Positions 416-62,850 of a stretch of DNA of 64,000 bases are shown here, piece after piece. The translations under genes were made by a program, and so were the position numbers. Source of the stretch: Euglena gracilis (lineage: Eukaryota); the NCBI GenBank assembly GCA_039621445.1, contig CP154954.1:25866954-25930953 (forward strand), given 5' to 3'. How positions within the stretch are numbered: position 1 is the first letter of the stretch; each line of letters starts with the position of its first letter. Below the pieces are notes generated by a model, which was not told where the DNA came from, made no database searches, and was given only the letters and a program-made list of their open reading frames with translations.

Positions 416-8962
<8,547 letters not shown>

Positions 8963-10172: not shown

Positions 10173-11850
10173 CAGGGCGGTCCATAAGGGACGGATTTTT
10201 TTTTTAGTTAAGGACCGCCCCTTAAGGACCGCCCCCCCCCCAATACGCAGAAACCCGAAAAATTGGACCTGAAAAAAAATTCCAGCGCCTTCGGCGCCGG
10301 GTGTTTGTTTTGACCCATTTTGGGACCCATATAGGAGGTCCCCCCAAAAACCCCTCAAAACCCCATTTTTTCACATCTTCCAAAAATTAAAACATTTTCT
10401 CAAAATTGTAGTTTTGAGAGGTTCTCAAAGTTTAGTTTTGAAGCAAAAAAAGCCAATGAAAGTACAAGAAATTTCCAAGAGAAAAAAATGTCAGTAAAAT
10501 TTCGATTGTGTCAAAATTTGGTTCTTTTGGTACTTTTTTTTACCTTCGTTATTTTCCACCCCCCCCCTCCTAAAAACTACCAAATTTAACCCTGAGATCT
10601 TTGAGATTTTTTTGTGAAAAAAATGTGGTTTTCCATCAAAAAATCATGTACCGTGTGGGGGAAAAAATTGGAGGCCGAAAAATTGATTGGTAAAAAAATG
10701 GCGTACAGAAATCAGGGGGGGGGGGAATGCGTTTCGCATTTTTTTTTTTTTTTTTTTTCAAATTTTCCAAATATTCGCATTTTTTCGCTTTTTTTCTTAT
10801 TTTTTGCGTTTTTTTTTTTTTTTTTCTGCTCTTTTTTTTGCTTTTTGGCACATTTTTTCATGATTTTCCAAAATTTTCGCATTTTTTTGACCATTTTTGC
10901 AATTTTTTGCAAAAATTTGAAATTTTCGACTTTTTTTGAAACTTACATTTTCCTCATTATTCTACATAATTTCTTCAAATTTGGTGCCATTTTTGCATGT
11001 TTTTGGGTAATTTTTGCATTTTCGTGATTTTTGTGCATTTTTTCTCGGATTTTGCGCATTTTTGCGCATTTTTTCCAAAAATGCGCATTTTTTGCACATT
11101 TTTTTTCTCTTTTTTTTGCGCATTTTTTCCGAGGCCGGGCGAGCGCATTTTCCCCCCCCCTGCAGAAATCCTGTCAATTTTTTCCGGCCCTTTTTTGAAA
11201 ATCGTGCCAATTTTTTCCCATTTTCCCCCACTTTTTTTGGTTGCCATGGAAGAAATCTTGCCATAACTGGACGTTTTCACATAAAAAATCCTGCCAATTT
11301 TTTCCGGGTCGTTTTCAGGTTTGGCACCAATCTAGCCCCAAATTCCCCCCCCCCCGGTATTTTGGGTTCATTTATCAAAATTTTTTCAATTTTTTTCAGC
11401 CCAAATACCCCGTTTTTCCGAAATTGGTGAAAATGCTGCCCAAAATGTTGCCCAAACCCCCCCAAACCCCATTTTTTCCACACCTTCTAAAATTTCAACA
11501 TTTCTCAAAATTTTGATTTTGAGAAATTTTTGAAGCAAAAAATACCACTGAAAATCCAAAAAAATTCCGAGGGAAAAAATGTCAGTAAAATTTGAATGTT
11601 CCAAAATTTGGTCCCACTTTTTGACCTGCATTTTTTTGACCGCCCTCCTAAAAACTAACAATTTTCAGCCCTAAAATTTTGGAGATTTTTTTGGGAAAAA
11701 ATGTGATTTTCCATCAAAAAACCATGTATTTTGGGTTCATTTTTCAAAATATTTTTTTTCAAAAAGAATTCCCCGGCCAATATCCCCTTTTCCTTATTTT
11801 TTGGTTGAGTGTATGGGGACAGGATTTTTTTTTGCTTAAGGACCGCCCTG
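10173..11850. mobile_element. Non-autonomous hAT-like element (~1.68 kb)
   Basis: TIRs CAGGGCGGTCCATAAG / CTTAAGGACCGCCCTG (15/16); perfect 8-bp TSD ACACACAA (10165-10172, 11851-11858); A/T-tract-rich interior with no convincing ORF. Confidence 0.85.
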
Positions 11851-12599: not shown

Positions 12600-56400
<43,801 letters not shown>

Positions 56401-57189: not shown

Positions 57190-57690
57190 GGGCATACCCA
57201 ACCCCAAGCCCAAAAGCCTCTGCCAGCCATGGGGTGTGGTGATGGGGTGTGCACACTGGCACGACACCGCCCTGCACGCCGCAGCGCACCTGCGCCTGCA
57301 AAATTGAGGCCACATTTTTGAGTGCTAAATTTTGCAATTTGTGACCCCTGCCAAATGTCAGGTCAATTCCCACCCTGGAAAGGAAAGAGGGTTGTCCATA
57401 TTATGTGTGTGTGTTTGTGTACAGGTGTGTGTATACATACACCTTTGGGACGACACGTCCTTGTCAACGTTGGCTGTGGTGCAAGTGAATTCGTCCAGGT
57501 GGACATTTTGGTCCATAAATTTCCAAAATTGCTCCAATTTGCCCAAAATGTCCACCTTGACGGAGTCACTGGCACCATAGCCAACGTTGACAGTGGCATG
57601 CACCACGTGTCGTCCAGAAGGTGGGTGGAAGGCAACCTGCCCCAGTATGGACCACCTCCTCTCCTTTACAGTGAGGGAATTGATTTTGGA
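57190..57690 (-). CDS. Putative two exons of a small minus-strand gene
   Basis: Minus-strand segment 57690-57443, bounded by AG/GT, reads SKINSLTVKERRWSILGQVAFHPPSGRHVVHATVNVGYGASDSVKVDILGKLEQFWKFMDQNVHLDEFTCTTANVDKDVSSQ. It joins in phase to a TTTTGCAG-bounded segment from ~57295 (RRRCAAACRAVSCQCAHPITTPHGWQRLL). Start and stop not resolved. Confidence 0.35.
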
Positions 57691-58023: not shown

Positions 58024-60410
58024 ATGCCCAAGAAGGCCAGATCAGTCTATTGCTTAAGGATTCGCAGCACCCCCCGGGCCCCGGGGGGGGGGGGGGGCTG
58101 GAATGCAGCTAGTGCAAATCCTAGCAGACCTCCCTGGGTGGGGTCTGCTAGCAGGGCTAGCTGGTGGAAAAAAATTTTCACTGACCAGTGCAAAACGCCG
58201 AAAAAAAAGTTTTGGGACCCCCAAAAACGGGCCAAAAGCGTCGTTTTTGTCCATTTTGGGGGATTTTTGAACAAAATCAGCCAAAAAAAAATGCATTAAA
58301 AACCTCATTTCCACCTGCGCCAGAGGAATGGTTTTTTCCCAGTCCAGGACCCTCGGACCCCCTAGGGTCCATTTTTTCCAGTGTCTAGCAAAATGGCTAA
58401 ATCAGTGGGCCCCCCCCCCCCCGGGTCCTTGAGCAATAGCCTGGGCCAGACCCACAGCTCCCCAAAAGCGCGGAGCCTCCCCGGCCCCCGCCCCCTCCCC
58501 GGCAGCCACCGTGACCAGGCACCCACGGCCAACCAGAGCCGACCAGGGCCGACCAGGTGCGACCAGTGCCACTTTCAAGACCCCCGTAGGTCAGGGTTCG
58601 GACCAAGGCCGACCAGGGCCAATTTTGCCTTTTGTCGGCTGATTGTGCCCATGGGAATGGTGGACAAGGTCTCCCCCAGCTTGCGTTTTTTTTTCTGGCC
58701 ATTAGTGCCATCTTCACCCATTTCTCCCCAATTTTGGCCCACGTTTGCATTTTTTGCCATTTTTGGCCCACTTTTCCCTGTTTTGATTCTCAAGAGGAGA
58801 AGGATGTGACCAAAAGTGACCAAAGAGTTATCGAAAAGGCCGAAAGTTACCAAAAAAAATCAGCAGAAGCAGCCTCAAGTGGCAAACGAGGTCATTTTAG
58901 GAGCAGAAGGAGTGTGCAAAAGTGCAAAAGTGATCAAAAAGGGGCAAAAGCAGCCTCAAGTGGTCAAAGGCCGTCAAAAGCAACAAAAAAAGTGGCCAAA
59001 ATCGGTACCAAAGCAGCAAAAAAAGTGCCAAAGTGCTGAAAAAGAAGCCAAAAGCAGTCGAAAATAGCAAACAAAAAAAAACGGCCAAAAGTCGGCAAAA
59101 GTGACCAAAAGCAATTAAAAGCAGCAAGAAGAGGCAACAAAGTGTTGGAAAAGGTTTCCAGTTTACAAGTGGTCAAAGGTGTCCAAAAGGCCAAAGTTGC
59201 TTCAAAGTGGCAAAATGTGCGCAAAAATATTTTTAAGAAAAATGACATAAAACACCCTAAATTGGGTGAGAGTGGCCAAAAGTGGGTAAAGGTGGCCAGA
59301 AGCAGTCAAAAGCAACAAAAAAAAATTGTCCAGAAGTCGGCAAAGTGGTGAAAATCAGTGAGAAGCAGCAAAAAAAGTGGACAAAAGCACACAAAAGCAT
59401 CAAAAAGCCAGCAGAAGTCGGCAATGGTGTACAAAGCAGTCAAAAGGAAGTCAGTAAAAGTGGCCAGAAGCAATCAAAAGCAGCAAAAAAAAACATCAGA
59501 CGTGCCCTCAAAGTAGCAAAAAGTGGCGACAAAGTGGTCAAAAGCAACAGAAGCAGCCTAAAACTGCCAAAGATGGCCAAAACAACCTAATGCATAAAAG
59601 TGGCAAAAGTGGGCAAAAGCAACCAGAAAGCACCCGGAAGCACTCAAACTCAATCCCAATCACCAAAAAATAAAAGTGGCCAAAAGTGGCTAAAAGTGAC
59701 TAAAAGTGGGCAAACGTGGGTAAAGTAACAAAAGTGAGCAAATTTTTTTAAAAAAACTGCATTGTATCCCCGTGATTTATGCTCATTTTTTGTTGGCAAA
59801 CCCCCCACCTATGGTCGATGCCGACCAGGGCCGACCAGGGCCGACTATGGCGTCAAAATGGGAAGTGATTATAGGTGCCTGACCGTGGCTTTGCCCGGCT
59901 GCCCTCCCCCCCGCCCCTCCTCGTCGGCCTTCCCCCAGCGTCACGTGCCACCCACGCAACAGGATTCTTCATTGATCAGCAAAAGGTGCTGCCTGGCATT
60001 GGTCATATATTAAGATATATTGAGGTCCATCGCTCTCAACAACACAAGCAACAGATGGCAGTGTTCGAAAAGGAGATGAGAGCTTTGAGTATTTTTAGTA
60101 TTCTTCCCTGTGGCAGCTCAATGGGGTCGCCACACAAGGGTATTATTTTTATGGCGTAAATTTTCTGGGTTTTAAGGCATTTCCAATTTTTAAGGCATCT
60201 ATTTTAAGTCTAAGGGCCGTCCTGGCATCGAACAGGTGTCCTAAATCAAATTATTATTTATATTGTATGCATGTATGTATGTATGTATGTATGTATGTAT
60301 GTATGTATGTATGTATGTATGTATGTATGTATGTATGTATGTATGTATGTATGTATGTATGTATGTATGTATGTATGTATGTATGTATGTATGTATGTAT
60401 GGTATGTATG

Positions 60411-60442
<32 letters not shown>

Positions 60443-60758
60443 TGTGTGTGTGTATGTATGTATGTATGTATGTATGTATGTATGTATGTATGTATGTATG
60501 TATGTATGTATGTATGTATGTATGTATGTATGTATGTATGTATGTATGTATGTATGTATGTATGTATGTATGTATGTATGTATGTATGTATGTATGTGTG
60601 TGTGTGTGTATGCATGCATGCATGCATGCATGCATGCATGCATGCATGTATGTATGTATGTATGTATGTATGTATGTATGTATGTATGTATGTATGTATG
60701 TATGTATGTATGTATGTATGTATGTATGTATGTATGTATGTATGTATGTATGTATGTA

Positions 60759-60793
<35 letters not shown>

Positions 60794-62850
60794 ATGTATG
60801 TATGTATGTATGTATGTATGTATGTATGTATGTATGTATGTATGTATGTATGTATGTATGTATGTATGTATGTATGTATGTATGTATGTATGTATGTATG
60901 TATGTATCTATGTATGTATGTACGTATCCCCTGCTCCACGCCAGTTTCAGGCCGACCACACAGACCCACGCGGTCCCCCCGCCACTGGGCTGCTACTGGG
61001 CGCTGGCCCCGACTCCGACTGGCCCCGACTCCCGTCCCCCATCCAGCCCCCTTCAGCTTCTGACCCCTCCTTAGCCTCAGGGGGCCAGCCAGTGCCGCGC
61101 AACGTGTGCCGCGGCGCCGCAGGGGAAGATGGGGGGATGCCCCGGCATGATTTGCAGGAAAATGGTGAGGAAGTTGCAAACGATGCCGAAGGATGAGAGA
61201 ACAATAAGATAATAACGGAGCAGTGTCAACCATGCCAATACTGTTGAGGTTTTTGGTGCTGTCCCTCGACATTGTTTGGTGTCCCTCACATTGTTTGGTG
61301 GCCGGAAACGGGACCTCCCAACTGGATTTGGGGGGCGTTGTGGGGTCTGAGGACCCCACCGGTCAAGCCGGCAGCTGCTGGGCCCACTCCACCCCACCCC
61401 CAGAGACTTTGCGAAGGTCCACGACACGGGGGGAGGTTCTGGTCAGACCCCCCCCTGTCGGTTTGGGTCGAGGAGGGGGGGATCTTTTTTTTCGACACGA
61501 ATTACCGACAAGGTTTGGACCAAGAATTAAACCCCAAAAAATGTGGTCCTCCCCGAGCTGCTTCCCCCCCCCCTAGCCCGCCAAGGGCTGAGTGGGCGGC
61601 CCCCTTGACCCCCTTTGGAGCCTGGATAGTAATACCCCTTCCCTCCAACCCCACCCACCCCCGCGGCGCCGGGGAGCCCAGCAACCTACGTTCCCCACCC
61701 CCACCCCAAACAAGACCCATGTCTGTTGCAGGAAATCTCCAGGGGGGCGGTCTTATTTTGGATTTTTGCTTGGTCGACCCAGAGGGGTCTTGTTTTTAGG
61801 GTTGGGTTGCCTGCATCCATTTGGGGTGTGGGTCTGTGGGAAGGACAGACCGCGCCACAGCGCGACGGCAGCCCCGCCCCCAACCTGGCGGCTGCTCCGC
61901 CCCCCGACCCCGGCCGGGCAGTGGGGTCCTCGCCTTCCGTGTCTGTCGGTTTCGCTATCAATGTTTGCATGGTTTGGGGGTTTTTGTGGTTTCGGTGTGG
62001 TTTTGTACCCGCTTCGACCCCCAGCTTGGGCCCTCGTTCTGGCTAGGCAGACTCTTATTGCGATGGGGGCAGACTCAAACCCAGGGGGCAGCCTCTCAAT
62101 TTGATTCTGGGGGGTGGGAGCTAAATGGTTGTCCCCGGGTTTGCTTCTTTTCCATTGATACACAGAGCCACCGGCGTAGCCTCCGCTTGGGTTTGAAGCT
62201 TACAACCTTCTCCTCTCCCAACCCGCTCACCTGGGGGGCAGCCTCGCAGAGGTCAATAATTCCAGGCTTGGGCCAAACCCCCGAATTGAGGAAACCAGCT
62301 TCCCGGTGCGTCTCCTCCCCGCCTCTATGGCAACTTGAGGGAGGTCTGGAGAGGGACGTGCGAGATTCAGCGAGGGGGGTTTGGGCGTTCTGAAGAGGTC
62401 CCGCTGTCGCAGCATTTGTACACGGAATATGGAAGCCCCACCCCACAAACACACCCAATGCGCAAACAACACAACACCGCACACACTACACACAACACAC
62501 ATCCAACACACACCCACGCGCAACACACACATAAAACACACACACACACATCCAACACACACACAACACACACTCATTCACGCAACACACACAGACACAC
62601 ACAATATATGCAACCGACCCCTGGCCTGTCCCGACAGGCGGACGTTGCGCACCAGTGCACAGCCACTCCACCCCACCCGCACCAGGAAGGGAGCCGGGGC
62701 GGCAGCCCCCTCCCCCGCCGCCGGCCGGCCGTCAGTGTGGGACGAGCGAGTGCCACAGGCGATGGCGGAAATTGTGCAGGACAGGCGCTTCCCGACGGTG
62801 GAGGCGGTGCGAGTGTTGCTCGTGGAGCGGCACCAGTACGTCCCGCGCAG
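58024..62850 (+). CDS. 5' part of a multi-exon gene for a Pro/Ala-rich protein of unknown function
   Basis: ACC-ATG at 58024. Removing the CAG..CTG introns 58040-58448, 58513-59886 and ~59958-60939 gives a continuous frame MPKKARPTAPQKRGASPAPAPSPAATVALPGCPPPRPSSSAFPQRHVPPTRQFQADH... Probable further exons at ~61843-61920 and 62638-~62850 (..WDERVPQAMAEIVQDRRFPTVEAVRVLLVERHQY). Confidence 0.65.
58040..58448 (+). other. Non-conventional intron that is a complete MITE (58043-58443)
   Basis: TIRs CAGTCTATTGCTTAAGGA / TCCTTGAGCAATAGCCTG (16/18); flanking 8-mers GGCCAGAT / GGCCAGAC; the body is similar to elements at ~4866-5737, 9834-10162 and ~14550-14830. Confidence 0.8.
58513..59886 (+). other. 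Non-conventional intron that is a non-autonomous TIR element (58516-59881)
   Basis: TIRs CAGGCACC / GGTGCCTG, sub-terminal GCCGACCAGG repeats near both ends, flanking 8-mers ACCGTGAC / ACCGTGGC, A-rich degenerate ~10-bp repeat interior. Confidence 0.8.
60264..60925. repeat. (TATG)n/(CATG)n/(TG)n compound microsatellite
   Basis: Direct reading. Confidence 0.97.

Follow-up and report, generated by a model that had tools for sequence, protein, structure and literature searches.

Where the nonconventional introns of euglenids come from and how they are removed has been open since the 1990s. Such introns make up 72% of all introns in one Euglena genome. A 64,000-nucleotide stretch of the Euglena gracilis genome (GenBank assembly GCA_039621445.1, contig CP154954.1, positions 25,866,954 to 25,930,953 of the forward strand; here called the window) raises this question in a concrete form. 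Two consecutive elements at 58.0 to 59.9 kb, here named the focal pair, and three introns elsewhere in the window have CAG...CTG ends, and a preliminary description of the locus reported near-identical 8-nucleotide (nt) sequences on both sides of each. It read all five as hAT-type transposons that are spliced out together with one copy of their 8-bp target-site duplication (TSD). All five pairs of 8-mers are indeed present, matching at 7/8, 7/8, 7/8, 7/8 and 6/8 positions. In this study, we asked whether the nonconventional introns of the window are inserted MITEs (miniature inverted-repeat transposable elements). We find it probable that they are, and that excision is measured from a terminal stem and removes the element plus one 8-bp TSD. 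All counts given here refer to this one 64-kb window and its three mapped genes.

Junctions and flanks of the nonconventional introns

Introns were mapped by matching transcript-derived EukProt proteins exactly to the window and enumerating by script all donor/acceptor pairs that reproduce the protein. The queried exons showed 95%, 100%, and 100% identity to the EukProt proteins P0001, P0002, and P0007, respectively (Table 1), and exact junction solutions were obtained for 28 of 28 introns. By these identities, the window is nuclear DNA of E. gracilis or of a strain very close to it. Six of these are GT-AG introns. The other 22 were classified as nonconventional, i.e., missing from the transcript and without GT/GC-AG borders at any compatible junction.

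The splicing code of such introns was defined by knock-in as N3CDG...CH'GN5-6/R (Nomura et al. 2025; PMC12501133). The N positions are free in the code as given there, so a repeat at these positions is no splicing requirement; the same text sets aside 84.4% of introns as "slidable," that is, with direct repeats. The register anticipated in the preliminary description, with 3 nt outside the stem at the 5' end and 5 nt at the 3' end (N3-stem...stem-N5), fits 20 of the 22 nonconventional introns. Both introns with only a single possible junction (15203-15446 and 35006-35705) fall in this register. The downstream exon starts with a purine, at TSD position 6, in 20/20 in-register introns, and the first stem triplet is other than C.G in three of them (CAA/TTG, CAC/GTG, and GGG/CCC). 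In the 17 in-register introns of genes 1 and 2, the terminal stems show uninterrupted pairing of 3 to 11 bp from +4/-6, and 7 to 11 of the first 12 stem positions are complementary.

The three introns singled out beforehand (15550-16719, 31025-31369, and 8256-8887, coordinates that begin 3 nt ahead of CAG and end 5 nt past CTG) were confirmed by the transcript-derived proteins, and the net removal in each is the element plus 8 nt. P0001 has Leu (CTG) across 15549/16720, and the T of this codon therefore comes from position 5 of the left TSD copy. P0007 reads ...DGE/DKR... across 8256-8887, where the Asp codon at 8255/8888 needs position 8 of the right TSD copy. Taken together, the Leu and Asp codons leave TSD position 5, 6, or 7 as the last one before the 5' cut, in agreement with the genetically defined 3-nt spacer. 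At the site of intron 31025-31369, the homologous exon in gene 1 (19370-19453) is uninterrupted. Genes 1 and 2 are tandem paralogs with four exact intron positions in common, and both have further introns that are paralog-specific. Nonconventional introns thus outlive gene duplication while new ones arise.

For the flank analysis, the 8 nt before +4 were compared with the 8 nt after -6, using partner-shuffled flanks with the consensus kept as the null. Mean 8-mer identity of the 20 in-register introns was 4.05, compared to 3.01 in the shuffled null (p = 8e-5), a null that is itself raised because the consensus has G at position 6 and C at 8. A scan of k from 4 to 12 revealed a clear excess at k = 8 only (0.506 versus 0.370), as had been expected for a genome-wide comparison, and none at k = 6, 7, 9, or 10. 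Without the three introns named above, the means were 3.59 and 2.92 (p = 0.008). The identity profile forms a plateau at -5 to +2, between the stems, with background on both sides; the excess sits at TSD positions 1 to 5 and 7. The flank identity of the six GT-AG introns equals the consensus null. Furthermore, the six paralog-specific introns showed a mean identity of 5.0/8 and the eleven at shared or ambiguous positions one of 3.36 (one-sided Mann-Whitney p = 0.032), as expected if a duplication decays with age.

Free elements and a proposed mode of excision

Transposons of the same build were also found outside exons. The window was scanned for CAG...CTG pairs at a spacing of 40 to 6,000 bp whose ends are complementary at 10 or more of 12 bases (n = 284), and partner permutation of the flanks (200 runs) served as the null. 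Seven of the 284 pairs had at most one mismatch in their 8-nt flanks (permutation mean 0.26, maximum 3), and the flanks were exact in four, where 0.03 were expected. Flank matching at other lengths gave 0/284 pairs at k = 9 and 2/284 at k = 7. Identity of at least 6/8 was reached by ten pairs, of which the three at 6/8 look like chance matches. In a looser set with at least 9/12 complementary ends, 10 of 1,634 pairs had matching 8-nt flanks, compared to 1.5 expected. The flanks of three of the seven good pairs are simple sequence (ACACACAA, GCACGCAC, and AGGGGGGT), which makes the match less informative in these cases.

All four elements with a perfect TSD carry CAGGG at both ends. The two copies of the family named MITE-A (8459-8582 and 52085-52209) sit in different flanks, and the ends of the confirmed intron 31025-31369 align with both of these non-exonic copies. 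Open reading frames (ORFs) covering the elements matched no Pfam family. The elements are short and non-coding, with inverted ends, a TSD of fixed length, and several copies at unrelated sites, as is characteristic of MITEs. CAG...CTG inverted-repeat elements with 8-bp TSDs are real and multi-copy in the window.

We propose the following mechanism. CAG...CTG MITEs, which would be non-autonomous and move by cut-and-paste, would populate the region and create an 8-bp TSD upon insertion, and the nonconventional introns would be such insertions or their decayed descendants. In the transcript, the inverted ends of the element would form a terminal RNA stem, and a non-spliceosomal machinery would cut outside this stem, 3 nt away from it at the 5' end and 5 nt away at the 3' end. 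Since 3 + 5 = 8, the excised RNA would comprise the element and exactly one TSD copy, and the pre-insertion exon would be restored. That the nonconventional introns are MITE insertions removed in this stem-measured way, together with one 8-bp TSD, is in our view the probable explanation, and older introns without repeat identity presumably arose the same way.

A wider reading is more tentative, and we doubt it slightly more than we credit it. Nonconventional splicing might be the RNA-level counterpart of the integration of one transposon family, with the 3- and 5-nt spacers as the halves of an 8-bp staggered cut. An exonic CAG...CTG insertion would then disappear from the mRNA immediately as long as TSD position 6 is a purine, and active MITEs, hAT-like or of a new superfamily with 8-bp TSDs, would have made most of the introns. 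The earlier statement that any insertion would instantly be harmless was too strong, because the published code also needs the purine at the start of the downstream exon.

Several observations weigh against the proposed origin. Two introns break the sum of 8, namely 17221-18116 (sum 7) and 1628-1817 (N3 + N6); for the latter, a model with a one-base insertion gives 6/8 flank identity. In 13 of the 20 in-register introns, flank identity is at most 4/8, so that most show no individual trace of a TSD. The introns are also not fully independent of each other, since two of the three genes are paralogs with four common positions. Membership in a multi-copy family of the window was seen for one confirmed intron only, and relatives of the other 21 nonconventional introns were not detectable within the 64 kb. 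Finally, the four perfect-TSD elements are not introns themselves; one is intergenic, and the other three lie within introns.

The focal pair and the nature of the elements

Both focal elements look like transposon insertions and are flanked by duplications. In focal element 2, 10-nt repeats lie subterminally at either end, and there is a degenerate 10-nt minisatellite inside; the ends of this element are 9/12 complementary, and it hence appeared only in the looser scan set. Focal element 1 has a relative at 14628-14766, with internal sequence in common, and another at ~4866-5737, which shares internal sequence and a conserved 3' terminus and at which no recognisable TSD was found. This decayed relative is located within a GT-AG intron and in turn harbors the MITE at 5352-5643, a transposon-in-transposon-in-intron arrangement.

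The reading of all five sites as introns stood in part: three are confirmed above, and the focal pair is a predicted one. At the DNA level, both elements agree with the published code on either strand (N3-CAG...CTG-N5, then purine), and each has a TSD matching at 7/8. The ATG-led ORF from which the exons had been called has non-coding codon usage. A codon model was trained on the three mapped genes, with exons scored leave-one-gene-out; it did better than a GC3-based ORF ranking, which did not pick out genes. The spliced 68-codon focal ORF scored -0.046 per codon, i.e., non-coding usage, compared to a mean of +0.557 (minimum 0.252) for 11 confirmed exon chunks. The mean of 106 intron chunks was -0.113, and 24.5% of them scored at least as high as the focal ORF. 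The codon-model scan detected no coding-like segments on either strand in 57.8 to 60.2 kb, and the exon-3 peptide had three weak Pro-rich matches only, with no close match among 1.84 billion representative proteins. Furthermore, perfect-TSD elements are common outside exons in the window.

The codon scores, the weak peptide matches, and the elements outside exons speak for the view that the focal elements are ordinary insertions in non-coding, possibly untranscribed DNA, and that the exon and intron labels are an artefact of a chance ATG-led ORF. The agreement of both elements with the published code on either strand argues the other way, and codon usage would be uninformative if the site is an untranslated exon. 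We regard ordinary insertion as a substantial possibility, short of an even chance. The focal elements may be introns of an untranslated exon, which we slightly prefer, or plain insertions, and they may be transcribed and spliced. Nearby, a minus-strand ORF at 57361-57690 was rejected as an exon as it is part of a palindrome. The 131-bp imperfect palindrome (79%) at 57462-57592 has ORFs that resemble each other on its two strands, and it can be mistaken for a coding exon. A stem scan of 56 to 64 kb was too noisy for use.

The structural hallmarks of hAT elements are an 8-bp TSD and YARNG ends (PMC3014272, as described there). Like hAT MITEs, the elements of the window have an 8-bp TSD and short inverted ends, and focal element 2 has subterminal short repeats. 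The YARNG motif fits 15 of 22 element ends, including every end of the perfect-TSD copies, and the other seven ends are off the motif and read CAGGC, CAGTC, or CAGCA; both focal elements are among these (CAGTC/CAGGC and CAGGC/CAGGC). The hAT target preference is nTnnnnAn. It was not seen here, with T at TSD position 2 in 1/11 and A at position 7 in 5/11 elements, a small sample. Pfam detected no transposase in 10 long ORFs and no transposase family in 150 of the 153 window ORFs of at least 125 amino acids.

The elements might instead be genuine 8-bp-TSD transposons of a non-hAT superfamily, such as Merlin or an undescribed one. The E. gracilis assembly is described as containing two families of Merlin elements that have 8-bp TSDs and a conserved DDE motif (PMC8101967), and the searched literature yielded no report of hAT in Euglena and no link between the two. 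According to the same description, Merlin has a TSD of 8 to 9 bp, ends starting with GG, and a DDE_Tnp_IS1595 transposase. Compared on this description, organism and TSD length agree, but the window elements have CAG directly beside the TSD instead of GG, and no DDE_Tnp_IS1595 was found among the searched window ORFs. Against a non-hAT superfamily stands also the combination of 8-bp TSD and YARNG ends noted above. We consider such a superfamily possible but rather doubtful. The hAT label is a reasonable guess, and the chance that the transposase is hAT-like appears about even.

Repair of double-strand breaks, with filler DNA at a staggered break leaving the 8-nt repeats as scars, was offered in 2016 for a strain-specific new gapC intron with 8-nt direct repeats in E. 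agilis (PMC4770533). In the window, the elements between the repeats have long inverted ends and belong to families found at unrelated, also non-exonic, sites, and the repeats are always 8 nt long. Since neither a constant length nor conserved termini would be expected from break repair, we consider it very unlikely as a substitute for duplication by a transposase. Least probable is that the flank similarity reflects the junction consensus (pyrimidine/purine at both borders) or chance in GC-rich DNA: the consensus explains positions 6 (G) and 8 (C), with identities of 0.60 and 0.45 versus nulls of 0.67 and 0.46, and by itself also makes GT-AG introns look "slidable," but the consensus-keeping null is exceeded with or without the first three examples, and the excess lies at the remaining positions and at no neighboring k.

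The mapped features are listed in Table 1. Gene 3 mixes intron types, and genes 1 and 2 have nonconventional introns only. Two residues differ from the transcript protein in the 30-nt micro-exon of gene 2 (34976-35005) and two in exon 3 of gene 1, which suggests strain or allelic differences between assembly and transcriptome. Intron 7 of gene 2 contains a 77-bp tandem array at 32855-34745 (24.6 copies, 95% matches) flanked by inverted repeats (34763-34839 versus 32797-32721, 97%); array and inverted repeats may mark a larger foldback-type element. A fourth gene is predicted at 48862-53512 (+), based on codon-scan segments scoring 25 to 46 at 48862-49101, 49255-49401, 51235-51381, 52329-52529, and elsewhere; MITE-A copy 2 falls between two of its segments. 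A Pfam match to ZIP at 19040-20035 was rejected, as the His/Thr run is encoded by a CA microsatellite. Long microsatellites are common and mostly intronic (60214-61071 and many CA/TG tracts, e.g., 7500-8000, 16000-16500, 36500-37000, and 40650-41100). An Rfam search of the window gave no match.

Table 1. Genes, confirmed introns, and CAG...CTG elements of the 64-kb window (coordinates count from its first nucleotide)
Feature	Coordinates	Strand	Description
Gene 1	15142-22466	+	P0001 = EG_transcript_19837, 224 aa, no Pfam family; 9 introns, all nonconventional
Gene 2, paralog of gene 1	25798-36305	+	P0002 = EG_transcript_20991, 216 aa; 9 introns, all nonconventional
Gene 3	416-8959	+	P0007 = EG_transcript_6081 residues 196-575, AAA_28 family; 10 introns in window (6 GT-AG, 4 nonconventional)
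Gene 1 intron 2	15550-16719	+	Confirmed nonconventional, N3-CAG...CTG-N5; flanks GCCCTGCC/GCCCCGCC, 7/8; paralog-specific position
Gene 2 intron 6	31025-31369	+	Confirmed nonconventional, MITE-A member; flanks GCCATGCC/GCCTTGCC, 7/8; P0002 reads across junction
Gene 3 intron 10	8256-8887	+	Confirmed nonconventional, 8-bp terminal stem; flanks GGGAGGAG/GGGAAGAC, 6/8
MITE-A copy 1	8459-8582		124 bp; inverted ends perfect over 18 nt; 8-bp duplication CCCGTGCC, exact; within intron 8256-8887
MITE-A copy 2	52085-52209		84% identical to copy 1; G-rich flanks GGGGGGGT/GGGGGGTG, 6/8
MITE	5352-5643		Inverted ends perfect over 14 nt; duplication AGGGGGGT, exact; within gene 3 GT-AG intron 4681-5824
AT-rich element	10173-11850		1678 bp, CAGGG ends; duplication ACACACAA, exact, in simple sequence; intergenic (genes 3 and 1)
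MITE	19776-20079		Duplication GCACGCAC/GCATGCAC, 7/8, within CA microsatellite; inside gene 1 intron 6 (nonconventional)
MITE	31676-32177		Inverted ends perfect over 16 nt; duplication ATTCACCC, exact; inside gene 2 intron 7 (nonconventional)
Focal element 1, left TSD copy	58035-58042		GGCCAGAT; 7/8 identical to 58444-58451
Focal element 1 (MITE-B)	58043-58443		401 bp, CAG...CTG ends match 16/20; predicted intron 58040-58448
Focal element 1, right TSD copy	58444-58451		GGCCAGAC
Focal element 2	58516-59881		1366 bp, 8-nt perfect inverted ends (CAGGCACC); predicted intron 58513-59886
Focal element 2, flanks	58508-58515 / 59882-59889		ACCGTGAC/ACCGTGGC, 7/8

Relation to known systems

A MITE-like origin of nonconventional introns is already in print, as the preliminary description had stated, and so are TSD-like repeats, a new intron with an 8-nt repeat, and the N3/N5 code. 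Such an origin was put forward in 2014 (PMC3935182). A 2024 review (Mob DNA) draws CAG/CTG as inverted ends with "TSD-like" repeats at the borders in its Fig. 3D (PMC11282704), and publications of 2024 and 2025 about introns of E. gracilis and of diplonemids still present a transposon origin as a hypothesis (PMC11170887, PMC12621601). Nomura et al. name MITEs only as a possible source, and the words "duplication" and "hAT" occur zero times in their main text (PMC12501133). A statement that 3 + 5 equals one 8-bp TSD was not found in the searched literature (article texts), nor were the MITE families described here identified there.

If the proposed excision of element plus TSD is true, the MITE-origin hypothesis becomes quantitative and testable genome-wide, as a flank-identity plateau at -5 to +2 that decays with intron age. 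It would also explain why most nonconventional introns are "slidable," and a MITE with its duplication placed in a reporter exon would be spliced precisely. Finally, it would add a non-spliceosomal case to transposon-driven intron gain.

The introns of the window resemble the euglenid nonconventional introns described before (Milanowski et al. 2014, 2016; Nomura et al. 2025) in their non-GT-AG borders, the pairing of CAG at +4 to +6 with CTG at -8 to -6, the stem, the 3- and 5-nt spacers, the downstream purine, and their species- or paralog-specific positions, all of these seen in 20 of the 22 introns here. Compared to that work, where the text treats the MITE origin as a hypothesis, the repeats here are 8 nt long and bounded by the stems, and free MITE copies with 8-bp TSDs are present, including relatives of a confirmed intron.

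Introner elements of Micromonas, Aureococcus, dinoflagellates, and Fritillaria are similar in that DNA transposons with inverted ends and TSDs turn into introns on insertion, the TSD supplying part of the exactness of excision (PMC11282704, as reviewed there). They differ in being spliceosomal, with GT/AG-type sites that derive partly from the element and partly from a TSD of 3 to 5 nt (same review). The removal of nonconventional introns, in contrast, is reported to be spliceosome-independent and to release circular RNA (cited in PMC11282704 and PMC12501133). For the Euglena elements, removal would be measured from the stem, with an 8-nt TSD split 5 + 3. With regard to copy families like those of introners, intron 31025-31369 shares its ends with the two non-exonic MITE-A copies (within the 64 kb only).

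The maize Ds element, a hAT element, is said to have been described by Giroux and colleagues (Giroux et al. 1994) as a de novo intron that is spliced imprecisely at cryptic spliceosomal sites. Like the elements discussed here, it would be an exonic cut-and-paste element removed at the RNA level; unlike them, it reportedly involves no stem-measured excision of element plus TSD. Among these systems, the 8-bp footprint of the Euglena introns is a sharpening of the published hypothesis and not a new kind of system.

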